Below are positions 21,424-61,081 of a DNA stretch of 64,000 nt, one piece after another. Made by a program: the position numbers and the translations under genes. Origin of the DNA: a virus; IMG/VR virus record IMGVR_UViG_3300017917_003583, positions 1-64,000 of that record, one strand, 5' to 3'. The notes under the pieces were generated by a model that had not been told where the DNA came from, did no database searches, and saw only the letters and a list, made by a program, of their open reading frames with translations. Position 1 is the stretch's first letter. The number at the start of each line of letters is the position of its first letter.

Positions 21424-21458
21424 CTCCTGAATGTTACGCTATGTTGCTATTATAGCAC
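21424..21458. repeat. degenerate fourth copy of the promoter-leader cassette
   Basis: ctcctgaatgttacgctatgttgctattatagcac. Confidence 0.6.
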
Positions 21459-21477
21459 AAACGGGATTTTTGAACAA
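21449..21477 (-). promoter_or_regulatory. sigma70-type promoter P1 (TTGTTC-17-TATAAT) with degenerate copy of the conserved leader
   Basis: Minus strand TTGTTCaaaaatcccgtttgtgcTATAATagcaacatagcgtaacattcAGGAGcacaccATG. Confidence 0.55.
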
Positions 21478-21478
21478 A

Positions 21479-21877
21479 TCACTTGAAGAATGTCAAGGCC
21501 ATCAGCACCGCTTGCACCACAAAGCCCAGGCCAATGGTGATCAAGTTCAGCATGTCGCGCTGGATGGCAGCTCGCACAAACATCAGCGTGAGTGCAGTCC
21601 ACATCAGCAGCACCATGTCAATGGGCAGCATGATGTCGGTCAAGCCCTTGCTGATGGCCAGGAGACTGGGAATGGTTGCACAGTGCAGGATCATGACCGC
21701 GCACCAGCCCAGGGTTTCAGCAGTGATCACACCAGTGGCAGTGACCCAGCGAGCAAACCGTTCACGCATGCTGTTCACAAATTGAGACACCTGGGCAAGT
21801 TTGGTGGGTTCAGCAGAAGTCACAGCGTCAGTCATGGTGGTCGTTTCGGTTGTGGGTTGAGTTTGTTCGGCGTTCAT
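21479..21877 (-). CDS. holin-like membrane protein (3 TM)
   Basis: Three hydrophobic helices; ATGA-coupled downstream of the SleB-like hydrolase. Confidence 0.45.
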   Translation of the reverse strand: MNAEQTQPTTETTTMTDAVTSAEPTKLAQVSQFVNSMRERFARWVTATGVITAETLGWCAVMILHCATIPSLLAISKGLTDIMLPIDMVLLMWTALTLMFVRAAIQRDMLNLITIGLGFVVQAVLMALTFFK

Positions 21878-22440
21878 GCGTTGTCCTTTTTAGCGGCGTT
21901 GAGGGGTTCGTAAAAGATGTGCACACCCAGCTTGGCCACACGCCGGTAATTCCAGCCCGGATTCACGTAGTCGGCATGGTAGAACAATGCATGCTCCAAG
22001 CTGGGCAAACGAAAGCCTTCCAGCAGCACACGCTTGGCCACTTCGTAGCTTTCGGCATAGGCAGCTTTGTCAATGGGGCGATTGCGGTGTGTGCTGTCGC
22101 AATACCACGAGAACTGGCACACAATGCGTCCGCTCCAGCGGTTCTTTTCGTATACCACGCCGCACACATCTTTGGGGAACTCAGGGTGTCCCACACGGTT
22201 CAAGGTGACCTGGGCAATGCCAGCCTTGCCTTCAAACGGTTCGTGGCCGCCTTCGCGGTAGATGTTGAGCGCCAGGCAATCCAGCTGGCGCTCACGTTCG
22301 CGGGCCGAGACCACTTCGGGCCGATCCAGGCCCAGGGCCGCACTCAGGCGATCAAATTTGATGTCAGTTGTGGCATCGATAGCCACAAACACGCCAAACG
22401 CAGCGGCCACCATGATCAGGGTTCGTATGATTCTTTGCAT
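21874..22440 (-). CDS. SleB-family cell wall hydrolase with N-terminal membrane anchor
   Basis: CLALNIYREGGHEP...GIAQVTLNRV...VCGVVYEKN...QFSWYCD is the Hydrolase_2 / SleB signature. Start at MQRIIRT with GGAGA RBS. Confidence 0.7.
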   Translation of the reverse strand: MQRIIRTLIMVAAAFGVFVAIDATTDIKFDRLSAALGLDRPEVVSARERERQLDCLALNIYREGGHEPFEGKAGIAQVTLNRVGHPEFPKDVCGVVYEKNRWSGRIVCQFSWYCDSTHRNRPIDKAAYAESYEVAKRVLLEGFRLPSLEHALFYHADYVNPGWNYRRVAKLGVHIFYEPLNAAKKDNA

Positions 22441-22568
22441 AATTTCTCCGGTTGTGCTGTTGCACCGGGCAACAGACCTGTTCAAAATTTTGAGCAGAAC
22501 TTTTACTTAGCCTGCAGGGCAAGTGGTTATCTTGCAAGTTTTTAGTGTAGCAGATCTGCCATTATTGG

Positions 22569-22919
22569 TCAAGTGCTGGTGCGTTTGAGGGCAGCCCAGG
22601 CACGACTCTTTTCTCGGCACTCCGCCAGCTTGGCTTCATACTGCTCACGCAGCGCTCGCAGATCCTCCCACTCCTGTTCCATTTGGGCATCGGGCACCAG
22701 GATGGCCAACTGCTCTTGCATGCGAGTCAGGGTTTGGTTGAGGCTCACGCCGTTGACCACGATGTCGGCGTTGGCACCTTCCAGCTGGAATAGACCTGTC
22801 GGCTGTCGCCAGGTGTAGTCACCGACACTGCCATTGGTCACTGTGGTCCAGGCATTGCTGGGGCTGAATGTGCTGGTTATGGGTTGATTTAGAATGTTAT
22901 TGGGATCGTAGATGGACAT
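22569..22919 (-). CDS. hypothetical protein
   Basis: ORF; start reassigned to MSIYDP. Confidence 0.35.
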   Translation of the reverse strand: MSIYDPNNILNQPITSTFSPSNAWTTVTNGSVGDYTWRQPTGLFQLEGANADIVVNGVSLNQTLTRMQEQLAILVPDAQMEQEWEDLRALREQYEAKLAECREKSRAWAALKRTST

Positions 22920-23094
22920 GACGGGTTGCACCAAAACGGTGCTCGATATGCTTCCAGTCCAGGGCCCTGCGATCCAAGGCAGACCGGGATTGGATCACTG
23001 CCTGCGCTCGTTGAAACTTTTGGTCCAACAGGCGTTGACGCAGTTCTGGGGTGAGCACATCTGGCCAGGTATCTGGGTCAGGTGTGAGAGTCAT
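22897..23094 (-). CDS. hypothetical small protein
   Basis: AAGGAG RBS and promoter P2 directly upstream. Confidence 0.5.
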   Translation of the reverse strand: MTLTPDPDTWPDVLTPELRQRLLDQKFQRAQAVIQSRSALDRRALDWKHIEHRFGATRHVHLRSQ

Positions 23095-23112
23095 TGAGTT
23101 CTCCTTGCAAAC

Positions 23113-23142
23113 AGTATAGCATCACCGCCACACAGCTTGCAA
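23113..23142 (-). promoter_or_regulatory. promoter P2 (TTGCAA-18-TATACT)
   Basis: Upstream of 22897..23094 with AAGGAG RBS. Confidence 0.5.
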
Positions 23143-23158
23143 CCAAGGTGGGCAATGA

Positions 23159-23901: not shown

Positions 23902-23964
23902 GTGTTGCCTTTCAAAAGTTGCCTAACAAAGTTGGAAAAATATGCTGTGTTTTCAGCATGTCTT

Positions 23965-23993
23965 TATTGTAGCACAGATGCCAATATTGGTCA
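23965..23993 (-). promoter_or_regulatory. promoter P3 (TTGACC-17-TACAAT)
   Basis: Drives 23530..23901; transcript would start at an ATGCTG/CAGCAT hairpin. Confidence 0.6.
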
Positions 23994-24037
23994 ACCTGTT
24001 TTTTGCCACAATTTGGGACGAGGTTTGCCATTTTGAC

Positions 24038-27785: not shown

Positions 27786-27814
27786 ATTATAGCACCAAAA
27801 TCTTTTTGTGTCAA
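27786..27814 (-). promoter_or_regulatory. promoter P4 (TTGACA-17-TATAAT)
   Basis: Drives lipoprotein 27246..27752; the -35 abuts a hairpin terminator. Confidence 0.65.
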
Positions 27815-27815
27815 A

Positions 27816-27831
27816 CGGGGCCCAAGCCCCG
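27816..27831 (-). terminator. hairpin terminator (CGGGGC-TTGG-GCCCCG then TTTG)
   Basis: Directly after the 29-aa peptide ORF and directly before the P4 -35. Confidence 0.4.
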
Positions 27832-27835
27832 TTGA

Positions 27836-29106: not shown

Positions 29107-29143
29107 GTGCTGAATCCTTGTGATGTGTTGAAAACAGTGTGTA

Positions 29144-29172
29144 TTGTATAGCGCTTGGGAATATTTGTCAAG
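29144..29172 (-). promoter_or_regulatory. promoter P6 (TTGACA-17-TACAAT)
   Basis: Drives AAA+ ATPase 28036..29106. Confidence 0.65.
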
Positions 29173-29325: not shown

Positions 29326-30723
29326 TTAACCGCGAGCGTTGGCTCGGACTTGTTCAAACGAGATCTCGTTGTAAAGTTTTCCGTTCTCAAACACCTTCTG
29401 GAGAACATCGACGAATGGGCCAATGCCGCGATCAGTCCAACCGGTAGGTTGATTGACGGCACTAACATATTCGCCCCCACTACTCCAAAGGGTCACTCGG
29501 CCTGCTTTAGATTTCTTACCTGCGTCGGTAATAGGGTCCTTCTGGACATCCACCCAAGTTCCGTTGATACAGGCCGACGACGCCTTCATTGCGAACTTTT
29601 GGGTGTCTCGGTCCACTTGCTGTAGAAGGGCGCCGCCCATACCGAAAGCAATGTTGTCTGCACTCCAGCCCATAGCCATAAAGGCGCCCAGAATGCTGCG
29701 GATAGTGAGTTCATTAACTCCGTCTCCTTGGATGAGTCGAACATTGTTGAGGACACGGAATCCTTTTGAGTTGACGGTGTAGCCAAATTTTTCTCCTAAG
29801 ATTTCAACCAATCGACGGTTAACTTCAACAGGATCACCGGAATCAGGGCGAATAACAACGGTAGCACCACTATCAATAACAAGCTGGCGGAGATCTTCCC
29901 CCCAAAGTTTTGATGCGGCATTGAAAATATCGTAGCTGTCGCTAACCACGGCAACGATGCTACCAGATCGACCAAATTGACGAACCATGTTTTCATAGGC
30001 TTTTACTTCGTTGTCACGACCCCAGCTGGTGATGGTGCTGTGTTCTGCGGCAGGTATTGAGAATCCAGCAATACCAGCATTGTAGTATTCACGAGCAAAG
30101 AGAATACCAGAGATAGTATCAGTGCCCATGAAGTTAACCAAGTGGGCGGCTCCGCCGATACCAGCACTTTCAAGGCTAGAAACACCCCGAGCACCAAAGT
30201 CGTGCAGCTTGAAGTCAATAAGACCAGGATCACCAGTTTTCTCCAGGTATTCAGCAATCACTTGCCGGATTTTCCAACTCTGTGTTGCCACCGTGGTGGG
30301 ATACCAGATGGCACGAAGCAGGGCTGTTTCAAGCCAAGTGGTCAGCCAGAAGCATTCTGGGTCAGTGTTTTCGATTGTGGCCAGCACGTTCTTAACGGGC
30401 ACCACTGTTCCTTCGGGTACTGCTCGGATAACAACTGGAAGAAATCCATTGTGCCGGTCAAGAATGTATTGCCATCCTGCTCGGTTGAAAGGCTCACCGT
30501 GTGCGGTAAGTATTTCATCAGCGACGTCAATGTCAGCCTGGGTGATTGGTTCGAGTAGGTATTCTTTGATAAAGGCCTGGAGTCCAAAGAACACAGTCTT
30601 ATCGTAACGTCCTCCCCGGCTCTCAATATATGAATGGACACCTGTGGTACCTTGTGGCATCTGCTTCCACATACTAACTTTATAACTGTCAGTATTAAGA
30701 ATGATTGATTTTGAAAAAGACAT
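29326..30723 (-). CDS. nadV: nicotinamide phosphoribosyltransferase (Nampt / NadV)
   Basis: SIILNTDSYKVSMW N-terminus and full-length Nampt architecture. ATG at 30723 with AAGGAA RBS; the ORF-track start is an upstream GTG. Confidence 0.85.
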   Translation of the reverse strand: MSFSKSIILNTDSYKVSMWKQMPQGTTGVHSYIESRGGRYDKTVFFGLQAFIKEYLLEPITQADIDVADEILTAHGEPFNRAGWQYILDRHNGFLPVVIRAVPEGTVVPVKNVLATIENTDPECFWLTTWLETALLRAIWYPTTVATQSWKIRQVIAEYLEKTGDPGLIDFKLHDFGARGVSSLESAGIGGAAHLVNFMGTDTISGILFAREYYNAGIAGFSIPAAEHSTITSWGRDNEVKAYENMVRQFGRSGSIVAVVSDSYDIFNAASKLWGEDLRQLVIDSGATVVIRPDSGDPVEVNRRLVEILGEKFGYTVNSKGFRVLNNVRLIQGDGVNELTIRSILGAFMAMGWSADNIAFGMGGALLQQVDRDTQKFAMKASSACINGTWVDVQKDPITDAGKKSKAGRVTLWSSGGEYVSAVNQPTGWTDRGIGPFVDVLQKVFENGKLYNEISFEQVRANARG

Positions 30724-30775
30724 AAAAGTTCCTTTTATATAAAATGCCACCTGTCTATCCAGTGGACTTGTTGTT

Positions 30776-30804
30776 AGTATAGCACAGACTTATTTCTGTG
30801 TCAA
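30776..30804 (-). promoter_or_regulatory. promoter P7 (TTGACA-17-TATACT)
   Basis: Drives nadV; overlaps the 3' end of the HNH gene. Confidence 0.65.
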
Positions 30805-31569
30805 TACCTTACAATTGCCAAAATGCCACCTTGGCATCACAAGCATTGTTCCTTCCTTGCCACAATGTGGGCAAGTTACTTTTTTAGACTTTTCCTCTCG
30901 TAGTTGTTGTCTTTGCTCATCAGTCACTGGAGGTTTTTTACTTGGTTTGCCCAACAACCTTTGCCGCTGAGCTTCTTTTCTCTCATCAGTCCAAGCCCAG
31001 CCGTCGCGCTCTTTCATAGTTTTTTTACGCTGTTCTACAAGTTCTTGCGGTATTGGTTTGCCCTTCCAATATCCTTCTTTCCCTGTGTTTGCTAAACTCA
31101 TTTTAAATTTAGTTTCTTCGCTATGCCACGGTCCGTTTTTCTTTCTGCTTTCGGTTCTGGCTTTCACATGCTCTGGGTCTTGTTTCTTACCTTTAGCTGC
31201 TAACGATTTCTTCTGTTTAGCAACTTCGTCTGTGGAGACTCTGTGAGCGTGTGCTATCCGAAGTTGTTCATAAACTCGATTGGTTACCCGATAACGGGAG
31301 AACGCCTTGTTAGCACATGCCATTTTATATACAGCATGCACCATGCCAGACTCTGGATAAATCTTTGCCAAAAATCTATGAGCCATGAAATGTTCTCGGG
31401 CAGTTAGTGCTATTAGATTTTCGGGGTCGTCGGTCCCCCCAAAGCTCCTTGGAAGAATATGATGGGATTCTGTATAACCGGTAGGATCCCCTAATGCTCG
31501 CCTGTTAGCGATGAGATTCTCATACAATTTTTCGTAGTTCATATCAAGGTCCTTGTATTGATTGGACAT
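30790..31569 (-). CDS. HNH homing endonuclease
   Basis: ESHHILPRSFGGTDDPENLIALTAREHFMAH. ATG at 31569; TTGTATAAATAT lies immediately upstream. Confidence 0.8.
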   Translation of the reverse strand: MSNQYKDLDMNYEKLYENLIANRRALGDPTGYTESHHILPRSFGGTDDPENLIALTAREHFMAHRFLAKIYPESGMVHAVYKMACANKAFSRYRVTNRVYEQLRIAHAHRVSTDEVAKQKKSLAAKGKKQDPEHVKARTESRKKNGPWHSEETKFKMSLANTGKEGYWKGKPIPQELVEQRKKTMKERDGWAWTDERKEAQRQRLLGKPSKKPPVTDEQRQQLREEKSKKVTCPHCGKEGTMLVMPRWHFGNCKVLTQK

Positions 31570-33961: not shown

Positions 33962-34317
33962 TTGAATATACCTGTTTCAAATTGGTTACTGATGTCTACA
34001 ATTTCATCAATGAGATTTTGATGGTTGGTCGGATCGTTCTCATTTTTTAATTTTTCGTGCAATTCAGAATACCTTTTGCTTAACGCACTGAATACGTTTT
34101 TATCTTTTGGTACATGAATCCATATGTATTCCTTCGCATCAATTTCCCAAACTCCGTCTTTTAGATATGGGGCAGACTCAGCACGCCACTCACGTCCCAC
34201 TTGAGTGCCATCATCATCAAACATGATGAAGAAATCGCCAACCGCAATGTCCGCTAATTGAACAGTGATGTGTTCACCACCTTGCCTTTTCTTTATAGTT
34301 CGTGAATTTACGTTCAT
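33958..34317 (-). CDS. hypothetical protein
   Basis: 119-aa ORF. Confidence 0.45.
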   Translation of the reverse strand: MNVNSRTIKKRQGGEHITVQLADIAVGDFFIMFDDDGTQVGREWRAESAPYLKDGVWEIDAKEYIWIHVPKDKNVFSALSKRYSELHEKLKNENDPTNHQNLIDEIVDISNQFETGIFK

Positions 34318-34511
34318 GATTCAACTCCAGAGTGAGTGTGATGATAGTCCATGCGCAGGTCTGACAAGGTCCAGTCTCGATACTGCCACCACGCACTGGT
34401 GCCAACGATCAAACCTTGACAAGCCGCTTCGTTGGTTCGGTGAGTGGCTTCTTCCCGCAAGGTGAGATTGACTTCTCGACCATACAAATGTTCAAACACC
34501 AGTTCTTTCAT
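34314..34511 (-). CDS. hypothetical small protein
   Basis: ATGA-coupled. Confidence 0.4.
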   Translation of the reverse strand: MKELVFEHLYGREVNLTLREEATHRTNEAACQGLIVGTSAWWQYRDWTLSDLRMDYHHTHSGVES

Positions 34512-34744
34512 GATTCAACTCCGAAATGTTGTTTAATCTTTTTATTCACAAAAACATAGTGTTTTGAATCAATCAATCCATCCGCCCATTGCGATCCAAC
34601 ATCAGCGCATTCCTGAACAATCAACTCGGCGAACTTTCTTGCCTTGGCCACACTGGCGTGGTCAGGTGTTATTGCTCCAGATGGCAGAGCATCCCATTGA
34701 ATCAGATCAGCCTGTTTGGCAAGTTCAAAAATTCGGTTGTTCAT
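34508..34744 (-). CDS. small protein, family 2 (MNxRIxEL...FAELIVQEC...KQHFGV)
   Basis: Family signature; TGACATG coupling to natV. Confidence 0.5.
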   Translation of the reverse strand: MNNRIFELAKQADLIQWDALPSGAITPDHASVAKARKFAELIVQECADVGSQWADGLIDSKHYVFVNKKIKQHFGVES

Positions 34745-34745
34745 G

Positions 34746-35765
34746 TCATGCACCAAGAAAGGTCATTAAGATTTCGAAGTGATCGTCAAAGCATTCTTCA
34801 CTCTTGACCTCTGCGATGGGAACCCAACGTGCCTTCTCTGCATCATCCTGACCCCGCACTCGGGGCAGTTCCCCGTCGGGCAGTTGAATGTAGAATGCAT
34901 GGGTTATTGTGCGCCCACGAGCGCTGCGATCCACAGCATCGAACACCCGACTGCGAACAATACTGCCGCGCAGTACAGGAGCAGGGACTTTGATTCCGGT
35001 TTCTTCACGCAGTTCACGAATCGCTGCGGCTTCCACACTTTTGTCAGTGTTGGCATTAACAAATCCTCCAGGTAGTGCCCACAGTCCTCGGCCAGGTTCG
35101 CTGCGGCGTTTGATCATCAATACATGCCCGCTTTGAATAACCACAGCATCCGCAGTGACAAAGATGGGTGGATAGGGCAGGCTTGCGTATTGCTTTTTGT
35201 AGTTGTCAATGAACTCACGTTCACGGATGATCTGCTCGAATTCTTCGCTCTTACGGAACTCCATGAGAAAATCGTAGGTAGTAGGTGGCACCACGTTCTT
35301 GATGAAGTTGCTGTTGAAACTACGCTTGAAGTAAAGACCCCGAATGTCCACAGCACTCAAGGGCTCGATTTCTTCCACGTTGACGGATTCCCACTGGGGG
35401 AACATGTCCAAGTAGAAGCTGGACTCGTCTTTTTTGTAGCCAATGATGGCGTCTTTGCGACCCAGGCAACGATACTTGCTCTGGATGCTCTGCACTCGCA
35501 CAGCCCAAGCCTGGTCGTTGTAGATGGTGTCGGTGTTGGATTCGATATGCACCTGCATGTTCAAGCCAGCAGTGGCACTACGAATCATTTGGCGACGTTC
35601 TTCAAATGTGAACGGGTTCTTGTAAGTGCGGGGCTGATTGGCACTGCCCACGATCACCACAAGATTGTCAGTCAGTGCAGTGCAGCGCTTGATGATTTCC
35701 AAGTGTGCATTGTGCAGGGGTTGGAAGCGTCCGATTAGAACAACGGAGTTATAGGGCTTAGACAT
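34746..35765 (-). CDS. natV: bifunctional NMN adenylyltransferase / Nudix hydrolase (NadM / NatV-type)
   Basis: N-terminal cytidylyltransferase motif VLIGRFQPLHNAH; C-terminal Nudix box GGFVNANTDKSVEAAAIRELREETGI. Start at MSKPYN with AAGGAGA RBS. Confidence 0.8.
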   Translation of the reverse strand: MSKPYNSVVLIGRFQPLHNAHLEIIKRCTALTDNLVVIVGSANQPRTYKNPFTFEERRQMIRSATAGLNMQVHIESNTDTIYNDQAWAVRVQSIQSKYRCLGRKDAIIGYKKDESSFYLDMFPQWESVNVEEIEPLSAVDIRGLYFKRSFNSNFIKNVVPPTTYDFLMEFRKSEEFEQIIREREFIDNYKKQYASLPYPPIFVTADAVVIQSGHVLMIKRRSEPGRGLWALPGGFVNANTDKSVEAAAIRELREETGIKVPAPVLRGSIVRSRVFDAVDRSARGRTITHAFYIQLPDGELPRVRGQDDAEKARWVPIAEVKSEECFDDHFEILMTFLGA

Positions 35766-35943: not shown

Positions 35944-36296
35944 TTCATTCCTTCCAGTGCAGCAACTTTTTTGGCCAGGTCTTGTTGAATACGTGCAATC
36001 TCTGCCATGGCCCGTGCCTTGGCTTTTGAAACCAGTTCAGTAGTTTGAACCACTTGGGCTCGAACCTCAACCTCCAGGACTTCGATTCTCACAACATCCC
36101 GCCGCATATAGTCATCGCTGCCAAATGTGGGAATCTTGTCCAACGACTCAAAAGTTTTGAAGCGGTCGAAGAAAGGGCTCCAGTAGGGATAGCCCCCGCT
36201 GTGCGAGTCAGTGTCATAGTAGACACGTTTGCCCCCTTTGTCAACGGCCGACAAAGCATAAGTTTTCTTGATGGTGAATTCGGTAGACTCGCTCAT
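35940..36296 (-). CDS. hypothetical protein
   Basis: ATGA-coupled on both sides. Confidence 0.45.
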   Translation of the reverse strand: MSESTEFTIKKTYALSAVDKGGKRVYYDTDSHSGGYPYWSPFFDRFKTFESLDKIPTFGSDDYMRRDVVRIEVLEVEVRAQVVQTTELVSKAKARAMAEIARIQQDLAKKVAALEGMK

Positions 36297-36670
36297 TGCA
36301 GTTCTCCCAGTTCTTTGCGGGCCTTTTCCAGAGCCGCTTCAAGCTCCCGGACCCGTTGCTCTGCTGCCACACGACGGGCAGTGCTGTCTTTGTCGATTTT
36401 GACAGGAGCGCTCATGAGTCGGATATCGCCGCCTGCGCCCCAAGTCCAAAAGTTGGGCAAGGTCACAGCATAGGTCATAACGTCTTCCAACGTGCCCTCG
36501 AACATGCCTAGTTCGGGTTGATAGTGATGGCCACCAAAGTCACAGTTGGGGTCTTCGCCCAAGACCTTCCAGACACCAGTCTGGCTCATGCTGTACTTTT
36601 TGACCAGTTCGCGGCCACTGTAGGTTTTGAGGTATTGATCCAGGCGTTGCTGGGGTGTAAATTTTGACAT
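36293..36670 (-). CDS. hypothetical protein
   Basis: AAGGAG RBS; C-terminal coiled coil. Confidence 0.5.
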   Translation of the reverse strand: MSKFTPQQRLDQYLKTYSGRELVKKYSMSQTGVWKVLGEDPNCDFGGHHYQPELGMFEGTLEDVMTYAVTLPNFWTWGAGGDIRLMSAPVKIDKDSTARRVAAEQRVRELEAALEKARKELGELQ

Positions 36671-36693
36671 ACAAAACTCCTTTGTATAGTGAA

Positions 36694-36717
36694 AGCTAAG
36701 AGTCTATCTCTTAGCTA
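36694..36717. repeat. 9-bp inverted repeat AGCTAAGAG-tctatc-CTCTTAGCT in an intergenic leader
   Basis: Between 36740 and 36670, just upstream of an AAGGAG RBS. Confidence 0.5.
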
Positions 36718-36739
36718 TATGTCTATTTATCTTAGTGTA

Positions 36740-36937
36740 TCACACACCATTGTTTTTGTCAACAGGGTCCTGGCCACGCATGTCACGTTCTTGGTCGCGC
36801 CGCGCTGAAAATCTGCCCAAAAAGTAGCACAGTGCACCAACTGCTGCCATCCACAGTGCCACCCGGTAATCACCAGTGCGGCCCAGCATGGCAATGGAGC
36901 AGAACGCAATGTAGAATCCAGCAATCCAGTGAATCAT
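36740..36937 (-). CDS. small membrane protein
   Basis: Two TM helices; ATGA-coupled. Confidence 0.4.
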   Translation of the reverse strand: MIHWIAGFYIAFCSIAMLGRTGDYRVALWMAAVGALCYFLGRFSARRDQERDMRGQDPVDKNNGV

Positions 36938-37308
36938 TGCATCACCTGCTCGATCATTTCCAAGATTTGGGTCAGTGCCGCCAACTCGTAGCGCTTCATG
37001 AGATTGGCACAGGCCGAAGTGCTGGCTTCGGGATATCGTGCAGCGTTGCGGATGTTGCTGCTGAGATAGCTGGTCACTTGTTCCAGCGTGACCGCTTGCT
37101 TGGGGTCTTGCTGAGCAACCGCATCACGAATCCGCCGGCATTGCTGCACCAGGGCCGCTGCGGCCATTGCGCTGTCGCCCCACTGAAATGCGTAGACTGG
37201 ATCAATTTCCAGTCCCTTGGCAAACTTGTCCACAGCGCGTTGGTTGGATTCGATTTCAAAATCCAGACGCTTGATCAGTTGTTGCTTGGGGCATGCAGCT
37301 TGGCTCAT
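36934..37308 (-). CDS. hypothetical protein
   Basis: Promoter P8 and AGGAG leader directly upstream. Confidence 0.5.
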   Translation of the reverse strand: MSQAACPKQQLIKRLDFEIESNQRAVDKFAKGLEIDPVYAFQWGDSAMAAAALVQQCRRIRDAVAQQDPKQAVTLEQVTSYLSSNIRNAARYPEASTSACANLMKRYELAALTQILEMIEQVMQ

Positions 37309-37314
37309 ATCCGG

Positions 37315-37350
37315 CTCCTGTTTGTTTACGCTATGTTGATATTATAGCAC
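37315..37350. repeat. 35-bp promoter-leader cassette, copy A
   Basis: ctcctgtttgtttacgctatgttgatattatagcac. Confidence 0.8.
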
Positions 37351-37369
37351 AAGGTGCCATTTTGGTCAA
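37341..37369 (-). promoter_or_regulatory. promoter P8 (TTGACC-17-TATAAT) plus conserved leader
   Basis: Perfect consensus; the leader ATCAACATAGCGTAAACAAACAGGAG is shared with P9 and P10. Confidence 0.7.
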
Positions 37370-37375
37370 ATCTTG

Positions 37376-37780: not shown

Positions 37781-37795
37781 ATTGTTCTTTCAAAA

Positions 37796-38484: not shown

Positions 38485-38656
38485 CACGGCTCGACTCCTT
38501 GCGCTGGTCCAAATAGTCCAGTATGTAGTCTGATATGCCCACAAACACGGCCTGCAACATCAAGCCTGCGCCCAGCACAGCCCATCCTGCAGTCTGAGTG
38601 AACTCGTGGCCCACTGCCATGGCCACCATGATCAATCCCACAATGTAAAGTGTCAT
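38477..38656 (-). CDS. 59-aa membrane protein
   Basis: Start at MTLYIVGL. Confidence 0.35.
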   Translation of the reverse strand: MTLYIVGLIMVAMAVGHEFTQTAGWAVLGAGLMLQAVFVGISDYILDYLDQRKESSRDE

Positions 38657-38660
38657 GACG

Positions 38661-39040: not shown

Positions 39041-39412
39041 TCACAGTCCCAGTTCTTCGCGCTCTTCCTGGCTCAGTTTGGCCAGTGCATCAGCACGGAG
39101 TTGACGCTTGCGTTCAGCTTCTGCCTCGGCCTCTTCCTTGAGCCACACGCGCCAGTCCAGGCATTCCAAGACTTCATCATTTTCCGTGCTCCACTCGGGG
39201 GTGAGTGTATACGTTTTATAACCGCGCTCGTCACGGTCTTCCAACACAAACCTGCTGTGCTTGACTTCCAGTTCAAAGTTGACCCGGTTGGCACGTTCAA
39301 ACACCGCCATCATGCGATCCGTGTAAGTGGATCGAGCCACAGCTTGTTGAGCCGCTTCGTATGCTTCGCGCTCGGCTGCCAGTTCTGCCTTTGTCTTACG
39401 TGCCATCATCAA
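39041..39412 (-). CDS. hypothetical protein (paralog of 33238..33594)
   Basis: Promoter P9 with identical leader; C-terminal LAKLSQEEREELGL. Confidence 0.5.
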   Translation of the reverse strand: MMMARKTKAELAAEREAYEAAQQAVARSTYTDRMMAVFERANRVNFELEVKHSRFVLEDRDERGYKTYTLTPEWSTENDEVLECLDWRVWLKEEAEAEAERKRQLRADALAKLSQEEREELGL

Positions 39413-39413
39413 C

Positions 39414-39448
39414 TCCTGTTCGTTTACGCTATGTTGATATTATAGCAA
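39414..39448. repeat. 35-bp promoter-leader cassette, copy B
   Basis: Identical except for one nt. Confidence 0.8.
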
Positions 39449-39467
39449 AACGGGCAATTTTGGTCAA
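39439..39467 (-). promoter_or_regulatory. promoter P9 (TTGACC-17-TATAAT) plus conserved leader
   Basis: Copy B of the cassette. Confidence 0.7.
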
Positions 39468-39487
39468 CCGATTGCAGACTCAGCGCC

Positions 39488-39727
39488 TTAAGATTCGCAG
39501 GCTGTAGCAATGCCGTCGCTATAACCCGAGTTATAACCCGCTGCCTCGCCGGCACTCCACCCTTCGTCGTATCCTTGCTGTCGTGCAGCAGCCCAGACCA
39601 ATTCGGCGAACTTGGCTGTCATAATATCGGCCCTCAACGTTCCATTCGCATCACGGGACTGACCTTGACATTTTTCTTGCGCAAACAACATGGCCTGCGT
39701 TTTAAGTTCTTGAATTTTGTCGTTCAT
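39488..39727 (-). CDS. hypothetical small protein (family-2-like N-terminus MNDKIQELKTQA...FAELV)
   Basis: Promoter P10 with identical leader. Confidence 0.5.
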   Translation of the reverse strand: MNDKIQELKTQAMLFAQEKCQGQSRDANGTLRADIMTAKFAELVWAAARQQGYDEGWSAGEAAGYNSGYSDGIATACES

Positions 39728-39733
39728 GATCGG

Positions 39734-39768
39734 CTCCTGTTCGTTTACGCTATGTTGATATTATAGCA
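39734..39768. repeat. 35-bp promoter-leader cassette, copy C
   Basis: Identical except for one nt. Confidence 0.8.
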
Positions 39769-39789
39769 CAGGGAGTGAATTTCGGGCAA
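39760..39789 (-). promoter_or_regulatory. promoter P10 (TTGCCC-18-TATAAT) plus conserved leader
   Basis: Copy C of the cassette. Confidence 0.6.
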
Positions 39790-39792
39790 CCG

Positions 39793-40199: not shown

Positions 40200-40228
40200 A
40201 TTCTACAGCAAGAAGGTATTTTTGTCAA
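40200..40228 (-). promoter_or_regulatory. promoter P11 (TTGACA-17-TAGAAT)
   Basis: Drives 39793..40167. Confidence 0.6.
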
Positions 40229-44566: not shown

Positions 44567-45053
44567 TGATGGTCAGGGTCTGTTGTTCCAGTTCATCGCG
44601 CACAGTGATCTTGCGTTGCATGATGCCATAACTGGCCATGAAAGGCTTGGCAGCGAACCGCTCCACAACCACACGACGGGCTTCGTTCTTGCTGGCCACA
44701 ATCAGATTGTCGCCCACACGAATCTCGTTGCCATATCGATCATGCGGCACACACAGGTCCATGTAAACATCATCGTAGTTCACACCCTCGGGGGTGATTT
44801 CCACTTTGGGCCGATGCCCACCGTGAACTGGGAGTGGGCGACGGATCACTTGTTGAAGGTCAAACAACCAAATGCCACCGCACAAACCTTGTGCTTGCAC
44901 CCGTTGTTGCCGCTCCATGATCTGCTCGTGGGTGAGCCCTTCAAGACGCCATTGATCAGGATAGTCCTGAACGCCGATTTCGACGCCGTCGGCAACGACG
45001 CCAGCTAGTGGGCCAGACAGGATGCGGTAACGATGGATGTATTTGCGATTCAT
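44517..45053 (-). CDS. hypothetical protein expressed from a leaderless transcript
   Basis: ATG at 45053 lies 6 nt downstream of the P12 -10 element; the ORF-track start at 45071 reads through the promoter. Confidence 0.5.
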   Translation of the reverse strand: MNRKYIHRYRILSGPLAGVVADGVEIGVQDYPDQWRLEGLTHEQIMERQQRVQAQGLCGGIWLFDLQQVIRRPLPVHGGHRPKVEITPEGVNYDDVYMDLCVPHDRYGNEIRVGDNLIVASKNEARRVVVERFAAKPFMASYGIMQRKITVRDELEQQTLTINDCFATIRVGNETATD

Positions 45054-45059
45054 GTGTGT

Positions 45060-45088
45060 ATTGTAGCACAACAGGGATTTTGAGTCAA
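45060..45088 (-). promoter_or_regulatory. promoter P12 (TTGACT-17-TACAAT), leaderless
   Basis: ATG of 44517..45053 is 6 nt after the -10. Confidence 0.6.
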
Positions 45089-47559: not shown

Positions 47560-47589
47560 AGTATAGCACATTGTGGAGATTCTAGTCAA
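47560..47589 (-). promoter_or_regulatory. promoter P13 (TTGACT-18-TATACT)
   Basis: Drives 47297..47530. Confidence 0.55.
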
Positions 47590-49660: not shown

Positions 49661-49690
49661 ATTATACGACCAAGCCCGGATTGTGTGCAA
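49661..49690 (-). promoter_or_regulatory. promoter P14 (TTGCAC-18-TATAAT)
   Basis: Drives 48385..49569; the -35 is embedded in a GCCCGG/CCGGGC hairpin. Confidence 0.55.
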
Positions 49691-49716
49691 CCCGGGCCTG
49701 ATCTAGTGTTGTGATT

Positions 49717-53749: not shown

Positions 53750-53876
53750 TCTTGGGTCCTTGTTTCGTGCCCTGCATACCCACGTGGATTGCACACCACA
53801 CGGGTCTGACCAATCATGTAGTCAAAATCCTCATGAGTATGTCCGTGTATAAATAGTATACTGTTGAAGTTGATAT

Positions 53877-54578
53877 ATGTCAAAGAGTATTCGCCCTATC
53901 CATCTCTATATAAAAACCCATAATAAAACAGGGTTAAAATATTTTGGCAAGACTACCAAAGAAAACGCCCACAAGTATCCAGGGTCCGGCAAGCATTGGC
54001 GAGCACATTTAGAAAAACACGGTTACGATTACTCGACAGAAATTGTCGGAACCTATACAGACAAAATCGAGTGCCAGTCCGCTGCTATAGAGTTTAGTGA
54101 GAAAAATAATATTGTGGAATCTGCAGAATGGGCCAACTTAATAGTTGAGAGCTTAGACGGCGGAGACACTAGCAACACTCAGGGCTACAAAGATTCATTT
54201 CATAAAATTATCGAAAATGGAAAAAAATCTAAATGGTGGAATAATGGATCGCATCAAACTTTTTCAGAATTTCCGCCTGACGAAACTTATATTCGAGGAA
54301 GATTGCCATTTAACAATACAGGGGCAAAAATAGGAACAGACGTGCAAAGAGGCAAGATTTGGATCAACAACAGGATAGAAGAACTAATGATAGCACCTGC
54401 AGAAGAAATTCCTCCGGGGTTCTCCCCTGGCAGACTACCGGCGACTGCATTTGCCGGCGGTAGCGGCAGGCATTCGCCCCTGGGGTCAAGATGGTGGAAC
54501 AACGGTGTTGTTAGCAAAATGTCAGTTGCTTGCCCGGGTTCGAATTATGTCCCGGGCAGATTGCGCCGAGCATCTTAA
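53877..54578 (+). CDS. GIY-YIG homing endonuclease
   Basis: IHLYIKTHNKTGLKYFGKTTK...HWRAHLEKHG; exact TATAAATA at 53847..53854 upstream. Confidence 0.8.
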   Translation: MSKSIRPIHLYIKTHNKTGLKYFGKTTKENAHKYPGSGKHWRAHLEKHGYDYSTEIVGTYTDKIECQSAAIEFSEKNNIVESAEWANLIVESLDGGDTSNTQGYKDSFHKIIENGKKSKWWNNGSHQTFSEFPPDETYIRGRLPFNNTGAKIGTDVQRGKIWINNRIEELMIAPAEEIPPGFSPGRLPATAFAGGSGRHSPLGSRWWNNGVVSKMSVACPGSNYVPGRLRRAS

Positions 54579-55903: not shown

Positions 55904-56176
55904 TCAGCCTCGCAGTCGTTCCAAAGAAATAATCCGGCACAGTTCCTGATCAAAATCGTAATCGTCGGGGATCACATACACACGCTCGTCATGCCGATCA
56001 CGAGCACGGTCAAACTGGGTCACTGTGACAATGGTGCCGCCCACAGCTGGTGTCACACGCAGATTCATGCCTGGAGAGTCCCAGCGCAGGACGTCCGTGA
56101 TCTTGGCCCCTCCCGATTTGACATCGGCCTCATTCTGGTGCAGCCGTCGTCGAACATAGTTCCAAAACCACTTCAT
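55904..56176 (-). CDS. hypothetical small protein
   Basis: Start at MKWFWNY; ATGA-coupled. Confidence 0.4.
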   Translation of the reverse strand: MKWFWNYVRRRLHQNEADVKSGGAKITDVLRWDSPGMNLRVTPAVGGTIVTVTQFDRARDRHDERVYVIPDDYDFDQELCRIISLERLRG

Positions 56177-56637
56177 GCTTGTGCCTTTCGTTGTGCCAGA
56201 TACTGTTCCCACTGCACCCACTGGTTTCGCACCCAGAAGCCCCAGTCGCGTGACTTGATGCCGGGCATGAACAGGGTCCAGCATTCCACTCCAGGTTCCA
56301 GCTCAATGCGGTGGAAACTGCGGGCCGAACTGATGCGGAAGCTGCCAGGGCCGCGCCACACCACAGTTTCGGTCATCATTTGACCCTGAGCGTTGAACAC
56401 CGGAATCCACTCCCAGTATCCGCCTCGGAGAATCAAGGTGGCATAGCCCCAGGGATGGTCATGCGGATCGTCGCCGTCGCTCTTGAGAAACTTGTGCAGG
56501 AACACGTTGAACGGGAATGAGTCGCGATTTTTGAGAAACAGGTAGTAGCGCTCCAGATACGGGCGGTCCTCCACCCGATCCATCACAATGCGCTTGCGAC
56601 CATGCCGCTCCAAAAACTTGAGAAACCGTTCAAACAT
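56173..56637 (-). CDS. hypothetical protein, possible cupin-like metal-binding fold
   Basis: DDPHDHPWGY motif; promoter P16 and AAAGGAG RBS. Confidence 0.45.
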   Translation of the reverse strand: MFERFLKFLERHGRKRIVMDRVEDRPYLERYYLFLKNRDSFPFNVFLHKFLKSDGDDPHDHPWGYATLILRGGYWEWIPVFNAQGQMMTETVVWRGPGSFRISSARSFHRIELEPGVECWTLFMPGIKSRDWGFWVRNQWVQWEQYLAQRKAQA

Positions 56638-56657: not shown

Positions 56658-56686
56658 ATTGTAGCAGATGGCGCATTTAAAGTCAA
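56658..56686 (-). promoter_or_regulatory. promoter P16 (TTGACT-17-TACAAT)
   Basis: Drives 56173..56637 with AAAGGAG RBS. Confidence 0.65.
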
Positions 56687-56712
56687 CAAAAGACCCGCCA
56701 CTGGGGCGGGTC
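56687..56712 (-). terminator. rho-independent terminator
   Basis: Minus strand GACCCGCC-CCAG-TGGCGGGTC followed by TTTTG; abuts the P16 -35. Confidence 0.5.
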
Positions 56713-56783
56713 TTTGGTAAATAAGGGTGTAGTTCGCGGGCCTCGGAAACCCCAACTACTCTATGATCGAGGAGGATCACAGC

Positions 56784-58842: not shown

Positions 58843-59028
58843 TTACCCCCAAGTCAAATGGAACCACACCGCGTCGGATTCCGATAATTCGAAGTATATA
58901 TCGTCGTGACCCAGTGCCCACATGTGCCAGTTGGTATGATCCTGCCATCCCGTGCAATGTTGCTCTATCCAACAGCATTGTTGATGCCAATCGTCACGAG
59001 AAGTGACCGCAACACGAGTCACGTCCAC
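58843..59028 (-). CDS. LRW-family small protein
   Basis: Ends SESDAVWFHLTWG; GTG start inside the upstream GGTGG. Confidence 0.45.
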   Translation of the reverse strand: MDVTRVAVTSRDDWHQQCCWIEQHCTGWQDHTNWHMWALGHDDIYFELSESDAVWFHLTWG

Positions 59029-59249
59029 CTCAGTGAGAACAGCACAGCATCAGACTCGTTGGCAAAGTGGTATTCGTAGCCGCTCTCGCCGTTTTTTCTG
59101 AATCCAGACCAAAAGCAGCACCAGGTGCCCGACCTGTTGCCTGTGATTTGCCACTCAACGCCGAAATTTTCTCTGCACCATGTCATGACTTGAGCTTGAT
59201 ATTGGGCGTGACAATAGCCCATCGTCACTAGGTACGGAAATTTTTTCAT
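59019..59249 (-). CDS. LRW-family small protein
   Basis: MKKFPY...WCRENFG...ESDAVLFSLRWT. Confidence 0.5.
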   Translation of the reverse strand: MKKFPYLVTMGYCHAQYQAQVMTWCRENFGVEWQITGNRSGTWCCFWSGFRKNGESGYEYHFANESDAVLFSLRWT

Positions 59250-59467
59250 TGTGACCACCTCAACATGAACCAGGTGTGCTGTGCTTCTGTTTCGAACCGC
59301 ACTGCATAAACCAATCCGTCTTGATCCATGCACAGATGCAGCCCAAACTCTTGCTCAAGTTCTTGACTCACAGTGGCGCTCCAGCTCAAGTTGTGTTTTT
59401 GGCGCAGCCACCCAATGGCTTGACGAAGTGCACGATGCATGCTGTTGACTGGAATCTCAGGTGTCAT
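59246..59467 (-). CDS. LRW-family small protein
   Basis: Ends EAQHTWFMLRWSQ; ATGA overlaps on both sides. Confidence 0.5.
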   Translation of the reverse strand: MTPEIPVNSMHRALRQAIGWLRQKHNLSWSATVSQELEQEFGLHLCMDQDGLVYAVRFETEAQHTWFMLRWSQ

Positions 59468-59730
59468 GATGCCATTATCTCAAAAAGTGTGGCCCACTGA
59501 GTATCAGGTTCCATGTGAAAACTTGTGCCCCATGCTAGCCATACTCGACGTTTGTAGGCTTTTTTCAACCAAACAGTTTTGCCTGTTATGGTTTTGTGTG
59601 GCAGCAAAGCAAATGCCTCACGCCAGGGATAACAGTCATGACCGTCTTCAATCACCGTGAGCTTGAGCTGACCTGGGCTATAAACATTGTACCGTTGTTG
59701 CATGCGTCGGGCAAAACCATTGTAACTCAT
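59464..59730 (-). CDS. LRW-family-related small protein
   Basis: MSYNGFARR...; divergent ending LFEIMAS; ATGA-coupled. Confidence 0.45.
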   Translation of the reverse strand: MSYNGFARRMQQRYNVYSPGQLKLTVIEDGHDCYPWREAFALLPHKTITGKTVWLKKAYKRRVWLAWGTSFHMEPDTQWATLFEIMAS

Positions 59731-59900
59731 GACCACCTCAACAAGTAAAGAGTATAAACATCTTCGTTCATCCAAAAATTATCGCCGAGGCCTTCACCCC
59801 ATCGGTCCCCATTGACACCAAAATTTTTTACTAGCCAAAGTTTAATTTCTAACTTACGATTCCAGTTCCAAAATTCTGTTGCAATTTTATGTCGTTTCAT
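59727..59900 (-). CDS. LRW-family small protein (57 aa, not in ORF track)
   Basis: MKRHKIATEFWNW...NEDVYTLYLLRWS. Confidence 0.45.
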   Translation of the reverse strand: MKRHKIATEFWNWNRKLEIKLWLVKNFGVNGDRWGEGLGDNFWMNEDVYTLYLLRWS

Positions 59901-60121
59901 GACCACCTCAATGAGAACGCCACAGCATCTTTTTCATCACCAAACAAGTAGTCAATGTGTGTGGTAAGGACCCAACCTCCCTGGACTTTGGTAAGGCCTC
60001 CCTCGTTGAAGTTTCGTTCATTGGTAATGTAGCTGGGACAGTTTTTTACAGCCCATGACAGATGGCTCTGGTCTTCGGGATTGTATGGCCACTTGTATGG
60101 CAAGGTCACTCTAAAGCTCAT
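59897..60121 (-). CDS. LRW-family small protein
   Basis: Ends EKDAVAFSLRWS. Confidence 0.5.
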   Translation of the reverse strand: MSFRVTLPYKWPYNPEDQSHLSWAVKNCPSYITNERNFNEGGLTKVQGGWVLTTHIDYLFGDEKDAVAFSLRWS

Positions 60122-60300
60122 AGCCACCTCAACGCAAACAGTGTGTAGATTTCTTCTTGCATGTACAGTTCCACAAAATCATAACCAAGTGCCACCCGCC
60201 ATTGGGCACCTTCAGGGCCAAAGTTGCCGGTCAGCCAGTTGACTGCCTCGCCCGCACGATCGGGCGCCCATCGTTCTAGATCAACTCTTTGCCATGCCAT
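60118..60300 (-). CDS. LRW-family small protein
   Basis: MAWQRVD...EEIYTLFALRWL. Confidence 0.5.
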   Translation of the reverse strand: MAWQRVDLERWAPDRAGEAVNWLTGNFGPEGAQWRVALGYDFVELYMQEEIYTLFALRWL

Positions 60301-60716
60301 CACAGCCACCTCAATGCAAACAGTGTGTAATCGCGGGGGTTTTCAAATGCCGCAAAAATGTAGTCCCAGCCGCCCAGTTCATTCATTACCCACTCGTTGT
60401 TGGTAGATGGTTCGTTGATGGCTCGAAGAATATCAAATCTCACACGGCCTTGGCAGTTGGCATCTGCCCACTCCTGCAGCCGGTCAAAGCCAGATTGATG
60501 CACGTCCCAATCATAAGCCACGTGCTGGTAATCTTCAAAGCAATGAAATACTGGGTAGCCGTGATAGAAATCACGGACTTGTGTGGCACTGTAATTTACT
60601 CTGGGATCGTAGTGACGATGGTATTGCTTCCAACTGACACACCCGTGCCGGCGCAAGAAGCGACGATCTTGCATGAATCGAATTCGCCGGCGCAGCGTCT
60701 GAACCCAGGTAACCAC
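60300..60716 (-). CDS. LRW-family protein (138 aa)
   Basis: Ends NPRDYTLFALRWL; GTG start. Confidence 0.45.
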   Translation of the reverse strand: MVTWVQTLRRRIRFMQDRRFLRRHGCVSWKQYHRHYDPRVNYSATQVRDFYHGYPVFHCFEDYQHVAYDWDVHQSGFDRLQEWADANCQGRVRFDILRAINEPSTNNEWVMNELGGWDYIFAAFENPRDYTLFALRWL

Positions 60717-60719
60717 AGG

Positions 60720-61046
60720 TCATGCTCCCCAACGCAGTCGATACCATTCATAGTCCTGTGCATCGCGAAACTTGATCTGGCAGCGAGTGGTGAAGCTATA
60801 TGTCCAGCGACTCCATGCATCAGGTCGTAGGGGTTCAGGTCCAAATGTTTCTTTACACCACTCCAGCCGGGCAATGTCATCGCTATAGGGGCCGGGGGCA
60901 AGATCAACAGTGAACCACTGCCGACTGAACTTGTATTTGTTTTTGGGTTGATGTTTGCGCGCCGGTCTCATGATCAATTGGTCAGGCATGTTGCTTTCAT
61001 TGCAAAGGTTGGTGTAAAACAGTTGATGCTGTTTGAGTGAGTTCAT
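60720..61046 (-). CDS. LRW-family protein on a leaderless transcript
   Basis: LEWCKETFGPEP...DAQDYEWYRLRWGA; ATG lies 6 nt from the P18 -10. Confidence 0.5.
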   Translation of the reverse strand: MNSLKQHQLFYTNLCNESNMPDQLIMRPARKHQPKNKYKFSRQWFTVDLAPGPYSDDIARLEWCKETFGPEPLRPDAWSRWTYSFTTRCQIKFRDAQDYEWYRLRWGA

Positions 61047-61052
61047 GTTTGT

Positions 61053-61081
61053 ATTGTAAGCGATACGGGATTATACGTCAA
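61053..61081 (-). promoter_or_regulatory. promoter P18 (TTGACG-17-TACAAT), leaderless
   Basis: ATG of 60720..61046 is 6 nt after the -10. Confidence 0.6.

Follow-up and report, generated by a model that had tools for sequence, protein, structure and literature searches.

Predicted sigma70-type promoters in the probable early region of an uncultured jumbo phage, and a repeated promoter-leader unit that may act as a portable expression cassette

Why would a phage place the same promoter, followed by the same short leader, in front of several different genes? The question is raised by a stretch of 64,000 nucleotides (nt), positions 1 to 64,000 of the IMG/VR record IMGVR_UViG_3300017917_003583, which we call the window and to which all coordinates refer. 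Nearly all its credible open reading frames (ORFs), located with a crude ORF caller of our own, run along the minus strand. The part at 1-21 kb carries genes for replication, virion structure and lysis (among them those for a clamp loader, virion proteins, an endolysin and a fragment of a DNA polymerase); beyond 21 kb, small ORFans and auxiliary metabolic genes follow one another closely up to the last position. In this second part, a sequence-only reading had noted 17 near-consensus sigma70 promoters, three of them sharing an identical unit of 35 base pairs (bp). We propose that these sites are host sigma70-type early promoters, and that a subset of them are portable expression cassettes, akin to the PeSL elements of T4-like phages, that would aid both expression and recombination. 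We give this reading a probability of roughly three in four. Its first half describes something expected and ordinary in a phage; most of what follows concerns the second.

The promoters themselves are easily counted. A scan of the window with the pattern TTGACN-N17/18-TAYAMT returns 13 matches, all on the minus strand, between positions 22544 and 61081; shuffled windows give 0.17 +/- 0.45 matches, and none attains 13. When sites are scored against TTGACA-17/18-TATAAT, 20 have at least 10 matches out of 12, again all on the minus strand. Four extra sites have one weaker hexamer each: 39789 (TTGCCC), 40228 (TAGAAT), 49689 (TGCACA) and 21477 (TTGTTC). Added to the 13 strict matches, they reproduce the 17 elements first claimed. 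The perfect or near-perfect promoters mentioned in the same reading are also present: one site scores 12/12 (27786-27814), and TTGACC-17-TATAAT is found at 37341-37369 and 39439-39467. The aligned sites have the consensus TTGAC(a/c)-aAAAt...TGTGC-TAyAAT, with a 17-nt spacer that starts A-rich and an A right after the -10 hexamer, and the TG of an extended -10 is present at 12 of the 17. The majority fall in gaps between minus-strand ORFs; the site at 36216-36244, inside an ORF, is probably spurious.

Other genomes show the same arrangement. For this comparison, relatives were drawn solely from IMG/VR and from exact-protein look-ups, and the related metagenomic loci used are designated L001, L002, L004 and so on. 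In seven related phages, every homologue of the gene at 39793-40167 has TTGACA-17-TATAAT ahead of it, placed as in the window. In 338 kb of loci picked by their NAMPT protein alone, a sample that is thus unbiased as to leader, 99 of the 103 unique sites that score 11/12 or better are oriented with the gene strand. In L002, a close relative that is 92-98% identical to the window, all 95 nt of the promoter and leader at 36734 are as in the window, and substitutions are found in the coding sequence next to them.

The strong early promoters of T-even and T5-type coliphages, which use the host polymerase, are conserved beyond their hexamers: in T4, the early consensus is longer than the two hexamers, and at the T5 promoter P_N25 the downstream region affects promoter clearance. 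The sites described here resemble this T-even/T5 type in their probable use of the host polymerase, in the extended -10, and in conservation that goes beyond the hexamers and includes the initially transcribed region. They differ in that the sequences are unrelated and in having no AT-rich UP-like tract.

A closer precedent comes from the lineage itself. The clamp loader of the window has 52.5% amino acid identity with that of the Pseudomonas jumbo phage PA5oct, and other jumbo phages are less similar; the window comes from an uncultured jumbo myovirus, distantly related to PA5oct, and appears to be its early-gene region. Transcription in PA5oct is reported to depend on the host RNA polymerase, and 32 intergenic promoters of that phage have TTGAC and TATAATA motifs around transcription start sites (PMC7318152). 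The nearest cultured lineage thus offers host-polymerase dependence and similar promoters. The differences are that PA5oct has no nucleotide similarity to the window (a megablast search with 36000-42000 found no match to any cultured phage), that the consensuses of the two cassette families described below match no cultured phage record by blastn, and that a repeated leader is not mentioned in the available part of that report. The claim that these are strong promoters for the host polymerase is supported, as far as sequence and comparison can tell, by canonical hexamers, 17-nt spacing, the TGn motif, a single orientation, intergenic position, positional conservation and the PA5oct precedent, although host sigma70 use and early timing stay predictions.

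We now turn to the repeated unit. The 32-nt string TATAATATCAACATAGCGTAAACRAACAGGAG, which contains TATAAT and a leader, has three exact copies, all on the minus strand (37315-37346, 39413-39444 and 39734-39765), where chance would give 0; an upstream TGC shared by all three extends it to the 35 bp originally claimed. The complete cassette, which we call family A, spans about 62 bp: a -35 hexamer, a spacer, TGC-TATAAT, a 6-nt discriminator, a 20-nt leader and a start codon. The leader starts with 5'-AUAGCGUAA(A)C and ends with AGGAG, and in all copies an ATG stands 6-7 nt beyond AGGAG; the consensus of the leader is AUAGCGUAA(A)C(A/G)AACAGGAG.

All copies lie on the minus strand. The first (39725..39789) has the -35 hexamer TTGCCC (39789-39784), an 18-nt spacer and TGC-TATAAT, with the -10 at 39765-39760; next come the discriminator ATCAAC and the leader ATAGCGTAAACGAACAGGAG, which runs to 39734, followed by the ATG at 39727 of an ORFan of 79 amino acids (aa). 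The second copy (39404..39467) is TTGACC-17-TGC-TATAAT, with the -10 at 39444-39439 and an identical leader to 39413, and precedes a probable ATG, at 39406, of an ORFan of about 121 aa. The third (37306..37369) has the same promoter structure, TTGACC-17-TGC-TATAAT, with the -10 at 37346-37341, an A at the polymorphic position of the leader, and the ATG at 37308 of a 124-aa ORF. The degenerate fourth copy announced at 21424 is real: it occupies 21415..21477, with TTGTTC-17-TGC-TATAAT and the ATG at 21417 of a 132-aa ORF (phrog_27048). Its promoter and leader, at 21424-21477, read TTGTTC-17-TATAAT-AGCAACATAGCGTAAC-ATTCAGGAG; the -35 is weak and the leader, AGCAAC-ATAGCGTAAC-ATTCAGGAG, has diverged. 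The genes downstream of the cassettes have no known function.

Past the -35 on one side and the Shine-Dalgarno sequence on the other, the three identical copies have no sequence in common, so the repeat is an expression module rather than a trace of gene duplication. An IMG/VR search located related copies in two contigs of the same sample, 3300017917, and protein look-ups added further ones, for 12 related copies across the window, L001, L002, L004, L005 and L008. The DNA shared by the window and L001 is limited to cassette 1, the 79-aa gene and cassette 2: homology extends from 2 nt before the -35 of cassette 1 to the ATG after cassette 2, with identities of 95.6% and 93% for the cassettes, 64% for the enclosed gene, and about 30% for the flanks.

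The relatives L001, L002 and L006 also carry a second cassette, family B, which is absent from the window: TTGACA-ATAAATCnGTTTGGGcA-TATAAT-ACATGT-ATTGATTGATTAAAGGAG, with the leader AUUGAUUGAUUAAAGGAG. A 19-nt family B pattern is found in at least 120 IMG/VR stretches (L015-L134), on contigs of up to 362 kb, and in at least 82 unique copies conservation reaches past the search pattern, to the -35, a large part of the spacer and the remaining leader. These copies precede at least 35 protein clusters in loci whose G+C content ranges from 30 to 52%, and about one third of them are preceded by a T-run, as in the tail of a terminator. Spacer types and leader types travel together, gAAATTCaCcCCTGTGC with AUAGCG... 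in family A and ATAAATCnGTTTGGGcA with AUUGAUUG... in family B, which implies that the copies of each family share descent.

In order to separate the leader from its promoter, IMG/VR was searched for the leader alone, with the pattern ATAGCGTAAMMRAACAGGAG, which contains no promoter bases and fixes 17 of the 20 leader positions. The search returned 81 stretches, or 70 unique contexts. In 68 of these 70, the leader starts at the 7th nucleotide after TATAAT, that is, after a gap of 6 nt, and TTGACx stands 17 nt ahead of TATAAT. At least 12 forms of the discriminator occur, the proteins downstream belong to 30 clusters, and the G+C content of the loci goes from 0.37 to 0.52. Within copies, too, spacer and discriminator have diverged and the leader has not. 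The leaders fold less well than shuffled versions of themselves (z from +0.2 to +1.2), so that the leader is best modelled as an A-rich, unstructured 5' untranslated region (UTR) beginning at +1. Its conservation across genomes indicates, as far as comparison of sequences can tell, purifying selection. Module duplication and selection on a conserved 5' UTR had been offered as alternative origins of the repeat; both appear to be true, the former from the co-inherited spacer and leader types, the latter from a leader that is better conserved than spacer and discriminator across genomes. A likeness between the leader and 16S rRNA around CGTAAACGA was judged to be within chance. A literature search for the cassette and leader sequences found no paper.

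The position of the leader bears on where transcription starts. Over 57 promoter-like sites from the window and related loci, the distance between the -10 and the first ATG is bimodal: it is exactly +7 in 12 sites (P ~8e-11), and +32/33 in 18 sites. Seven of the 12 ATGs at +7 open ORFs of 70-275 aa without a Shine-Dalgarno sequence (all at least 70 aa long), three of them in the window and at least four in relatives (L001, L005, L008); one, in L008, is the start called independently by the Joint Genome Institute. Together, the peak of ATGs at +7 and the conserved leader that starts at +7 suggest that transcription probably begins at the A located 7 nt after the -10. Promoters with an ATG at that position would then form a second class, designed for leaderless mRNAs. 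In the window, these are a site at 12017-12054 (minus strand, ATG at 12019), TTGACT-17-TGC-TACAAT at 45051..45088 (minus strand, ATG at 45053, 178-aa ORF), and TTGACG-17-TACAAT at 61044..61081 (minus strand, ATG at 61046, 108-aa ORF), the last with a 12-bp stem-loop just upstream. The cI mRNA that phage lambda makes from P_RM is leaderless as well, with its start codon at the transcription start; that is a single regulatory case, whereas the design is recurrent here, in early regions of lytic phages. The cassette does not fit the start-site context for NAD capping (HRRASWW), and this idea was dropped.

What could a repeated promoter do beyond driving transcription? The comparison between the window and L002 is instructive. 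Homology between the two breaks exactly at the ATG at 45053: the gene that begins there, with 96.6% aa identity, has a leaderless promoter in the window, and a family B promoter and leader in L002. The two sequences match again from about 37369, within cassette copy 3, where the spacer of L002 is closer to that of window copy 1 (91.5% identity to 39731-39789) than to that of copy 3. Between these points, 6.8 kb of small genes in the window are replaced in L002 by an rIIA-rIIB block that includes a promoter. Thus two of the three boundaries of this large replacement, in a single pair of close genomes, are at or inside promoters.

This is the pattern reported for PeSL elements, which were described in the T4-like phage pairs RB49/phi1, T4/PST and KVP40/nt-1, and which are found at the boundaries of indels and replacements between close relatives (PMC2839356; PMC4122927). 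As there, the cassettes studied here are repeated, intergenic, near-consensus sigma70 promoters that end in a Shine-Dalgarno sequence and a start codon; they are concentrated in variable regions, ahead of ORFans, with single genes between two cassettes; and some of them may mark boundaries of insertion, deletion or replacement, judging from one close genome pair. There are also differences. The stable stem-loop reported for PeSL elements has no counterpart in the four repeated cassettes, which fold no better than shuffled sequences (z from -0.7 to +0.3) and contain only a 5-bp GCTAT/ATAGC repeat. Neither has the AT-rich tract upstream of the -35: from -60 to -36, A+T averages 0.43, versus 0.487 for the window. 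The best-conserved part is the transcribed leader from +1, which the available PeSL descriptions do not highlight, and this leader is common to many phages of differing G+C content, where those descriptions present PeSL elements as specific to a phage pair. Finally, PeSL elements come from T4-like phages, and the phage studied here is a jumbo phage distantly related to T4. The cassettes may hence be regarded as a PeSL-like variant that lacks a terminator, has a leader anchored at +1, is shared across many genomes, and belongs to a jumbo lineage.

The mechanism that we propose is the following. The housekeeping sigma70-type polymerase of the host would transcribe the early region from about 17 strong promoters. 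A cassette would supply strong transcription and an open, efficient ribosome-binding site to whichever ORF comes next; as a conserved repeat scattered over a variable region, it would also supply homology for recombination. Recombination at cassettes could then swap, insert or delete gene modules, within a phage and between related phages, as is described for PeSL elements.

Several observations weigh against this proposal. The invariance of the leader in the search set is partly forced by a pattern that fixes 17 of its 20 positions, and the A-type leader is rare in the unbiased sample of NAMPT-anchored loci, where it follows 1 of the 103 sites; the other leaders of that sample share only a general style, with an AUA start, an A- and C-rich body and a Shine-Dalgarno end. 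Efficient translation alone would leave the near-invariance of 20 nt across 37-52% G+C unexplained, since an unstructured A-rich leader can be built from many sequences. The third boundary of the L002 replacement, at 44189, follows the stop codon of the next gene, and has no promoter on the window side. Moreover, three single-gene indels between the window and L002, at 33.6-34.5 kb, lie not at promoters but at copies of GGAGTTGAATCATGA, a translational-coupling junction of the Shine-Dalgarno/ATGA type. It has 8 copies versus 0.19 expected, all on the minus strand (34314-34328, 34508-34522, 41882, 42341, 42768, 45703, 46557 and 47819), so promoter cassettes would be just one of the recombination substrates. 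A second family of junctions, GAGGTGGTCATGA, has 11 copies at 59-62 kb (59019-62175).

Other explanations of the repeats deserve to be weighed. An exact 35-bp repeat that extends past +1 resembles the promoters of single-subunit polymerases, such as the exact repeats of about 23 bp in T7-like phages, and the cassettes could be promoters for an RNA polymerase or a sigma factor encoded by the phage. We regard this as very improbable: it is the two hexamers, 17 nt apart, and the TGn that are conserved, with variable bases between them, the window ORFs that were scanned include no RNA polymerase gene, and the nearest cultured relative is described as relying on the host polymerase. The identical copies could instead be recent duplications, or products of gene conversion, with a functionless leader too young to have decayed. 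The shared descent implied by co-inherited spacer and leader types is in line with this, as is the clearly recombinogenic character of the lineage. However, recent copies should not have diverged in spacer and discriminator and be intact in the leader, nor should cassettes remain 93-96% identical between the window and L001 around a gene at 64%; furthermore, the G/A variant of the leader is common to copies of different genomes instead of being homogenised within one. These facts make the explanation decidedly unlikely. Inverted repeats suggest yet another role, that of a DNA operator around -10 and +1 at which a dimeric repressor would shut the promoters at the early-to-middle switch. Family B has a perfect 12-bp palindrome, AATACATGTATT, which spans the -10 and +1, although the search pattern itself imposed it, and variants with ACTTGT disrupt it. 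Family A has GCTAT-N9-ATAGC, which becomes GCTATA-N7-TATAGC in L008; its arms are merely 5 bp long, the spacing of the repeat shifts, and the discriminator takes at least 12 forms while the transcribed part is constant. An operator is, on balance, unlikely.

The last alternative is compatible with the cassette explanation. The 20-nt leader could be a specific element that is recognized at the mRNA 5' end by a factor of the phage or the host. This factor might be a translational regulator that binds RNA, an endoribonuclease, a small RNA, or a pathway of decay or protection that depends on the 5' end. The clade would then use a few standardised 5' UTRs, anchored at +1, as functional RNA modules that govern message stability or translation for a whole cohort of early genes with no other relation to one another. 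In favour of such a role, the conserved block begins at the predicted +1 in nearly all contexts, with discriminator and spacer free to vary; it is kept over 37-52% G+C and ahead of 30 protein families; the family B leader behaves alike in its 82 or more unique contexts; and no generic requirement accounts for the near-invariance of an unstructured sequence. On the other hand, no candidate binding protein was found, nor any RegA-like gene near the clamp-loader genes; the window lacks an antisense copy of the leader, a search that tolerated up to 3 mismatches having matched the minus strand only; and the leader has no Rfam match, a scan of the whole window at gathering thresholds giving none, and scans of 30650-30850 and 36600-39850 by E-value giving chance-level matches only. 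Promoter and leader inherited as a unit could equally fix the distance between them, and the leader data set was gathered by searching for the leader itself. We therefore entertain this role tentatively, as a possibility that falls well short of even odds. If true, the cassette would carry membership in a regulon, together with a promoter, at each gene shuffle.

Leaders of another kind, with predicted structure, follow the promoters at 30776 and 36734, which belong to the set of 17 and have TAyACT as their -10 hexamer. The first, TTGACA-17-TGC-TATACT at 30804-30776, belongs to a unit at 30720..30804 on the minus strand, which precedes the NAMPT gene (29326-30723, minus strand). The second, TTGACA-17-TACACT at 36762-36734, belongs to a unit at 36668..36762 on the minus strand, and heads an operon ending in a gene that encodes an NMNAT-NUDIX fusion (34746-35765, minus strand). 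Each leader has two predicted hairpins on the minus strand: one with a (G)AUAGA loop (30765-30747 for NAMPT) or an AUAGA loop (36714-36696 for the operon), and a 9-bp hairpin that contains the Shine-Dalgarno sequence and the AUG (30740-30720 and 36688-36668). Among 129 window ORFs, 9-bp hairpins of the latter type are found solely at these two units. When ATAGA-loop hairpins were sought generically, most of what came back was 5-bp stems of the kind that chance produces, and this search was replaced by alignments anchored on orthologues and a covariance model. For NAMPT, 80 IMG/VR loci (L135-L214) whose proteins have 77-86% identity provided 65 unique upstream regions, and 40 of them contain the hairpin CC-N4-G-AUAGA-C-N4-GG, whose G-AUAGA-C loop is invariant. 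In an alignment of 29 sequences, 86.7% of the cells are paired and six of the seven pairs have changes on both sides; covariation is 0.526, versus 0.148 for shuffled alignments (0 of 500 as high), and at most 0.112 with slid partners. The second hairpin, 5-7 bp with a GAG/GAA loop, encloses the Shine-Dalgarno sequence, ends at the AUG, and fits 57 of 57 unique upstream ends; over 32 distinct aligned segments, 90.2% of the cells are paired, and covariation is 0.609 versus 0.162 (0 of 500).

The covariance model of the AUAGA hairpin hits only two sites in the window, the NAMPT leader and 36689-36721 (E = 3e-4). Homologues of the NMNAT-NUDIX gene in related loci (L033 and L079 among those cited) have a GAUAGAC loop, and a more distant subgroup has G(U/C)AGU; the Ralstonia phage RsoM2USA has the Shine-Dalgarno hairpin and no AUAGA hairpin. 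Leaders of the NMNAT-NUDIX unit in relatives also contain TAAATA(A/G)A on the 3' side of the -10. The NAD-salvage leader has no match in Rfam. NAMPT and NMNAT constitute the NARP2 pathway of NAD+ reconstitution, which consumes PRPP (phosphoribosyl pyrophosphate), and in E. coli the KVP40 operon proved toxic (bioRxiv 10.1101/2024.02.11.579819); this would be a motive for keeping these genes under tight control. We consider the two-hairpin leader, which precedes the genes of a costly counter-defence pathway, to be a candidate cis-regulatory RNA: a covarying leader on both NAD-salvage units suggests that the cost is managed at the level of RNA.

Hairpins are also found next to promoters. Terminator-like hairpins had been noted at the -35 of three promoters, and one of them is a canonical terminator. 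At 56689-56715, on the minus strand, an 11-bp stem with 7 G-C pairs is followed by TTTTGTT, and the T-run extends into the -35 of TTGACT-17-TGC-TACAAT; the whole junction, 56658..56715, lies upstream of the cysteine-dioxygenase-like gene. Homologues of the gene at 56173-56637 in five related phages have a terminator hairpin and a promoter in the same layout as 56658-56715, with different stem sequences. The other two are stable stem-loops that lack a T-run: the G+C-rich hairpin at 27832-27815, of 7 bp, lies against the -35 of the perfect promoter TTGACA-17-TGC-TATAAT, the pair covering 27786..27832 on the minus strand, with only TTT after the stem; and a 12-bp hairpin (49699-49672, z = -4.5) contains the weak -35 of TGCACA-17-TATAAT, in a unit at 49661..49699 on the minus strand that has a second hairpin in its leader. 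If an intrinsic terminator is taken to be a G+C-rich hairpin with a direct T-run, 56689-56715 is thus the only one among the three junctions. In a fold test, adjacent hairpins were confined to the promoters at 61053, 56658, 49661, 30776, 29143 and 27786.

The remaining promoters, all on the minus strand, complete the set. TTGACA-17-TATACT (53855..53883) and TTGACT-18-TGC-TATACT (47560..47589) are pattern matches; TTGACA-17-TAGAAT (40200..40228) is upstream of a phrog_1987 gene, and TTGACA-17-TACAAT (29143..29171) is upstream of an AAA ATPase gene. TTGACC-17-TGC-TACAAT, in a unit at 23942..23994, is directly followed by a terminator-like hairpin at 23959-23942, ATGCTG-AAAACA-CAGCAT and a T-run; this hairpin, after the promoter at 23966, could be an attenuator or produce a very short transcript. 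TTGACC-17-TGC-TACACT (22544..22572) has a leader of about 100 nt, with hairpins within it (22440-22572) ahead of the next ORF. The T4 late-promoter motif TATAAATA has 3 copies in the window, at 23446, 31574 (minus strand) and 53848 (plus strand), versus 0.26 expected, and none is tied to a gene start.

Other repeats were encountered in the window. A plus-strand ORF at 16622-18418 (598 aa), among the few on that strand, contains tandem repeats of about 99 nt (repeat families D2, D4 and D7). A 300-nt direct repeat with 83% identity (12083-12382 and 15951-16250) joins the genes at 12064-13011 and 15932-16534, which flank a 963-aa protein with Ig domains. At 37376-38544, on the minus strand, three neighbouring small ORFs (134, 110 and 139 aa) resemble tandem paralogues: judged by reading the sequence, they have apparent hydrophobic segments and a similar C-terminal motif, ...(E/Q)(R/H)YR(K/E)EKQ... 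Repeat family D12 is a 37-nt motif, GAAAAATTCGCCCAGTTGATTGCACAAGAGTGCATGG on the coding strand, within six small minus-strand ORFs (34603, 41738, 42487, 42860, 45360 and 45831); it suggests a family of small paralogous early proteins. A SAM (S-adenosylmethionine) synthetase and a Band-7 protein are also encoded from 21 kb onward. No tRNA was found in the window.

How widespread is this lineage? Many genes of the window have homologues, with 30-79% identity, in the loci that carry family B, which places them all in one large clade. NAMPT proteins are 77-86% identical inside the clade, and those of cultured phages reach 60% at the most. A Logan contig of 1.4 kb, assembled from SRR5831666, matches the window with 100% identity, and a JGI contig of 65,493 bp encodes an identical protein. 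The cassette patterns have 0 matches in the collections of metagenome contigs and genome contigs that were scanned.

Beyond what the sequence-only reading had noted, the comparison adds a probable role in recombination at synteny breakpoints, a leader found throughout the clade, and a leaderless class of promoters. The shuffling of genes by promoter cassettes, known from T4-like phages, thus also appears to take place in a clade of uncultured jumbo phages that has no close cultured member. In this clade, a 20-nt unstructured leader ahead of dozens of unrelated genes is a lead, either for a portable part that gives high expression, or for a post-transcriptional control that has so far gone unrecognised.

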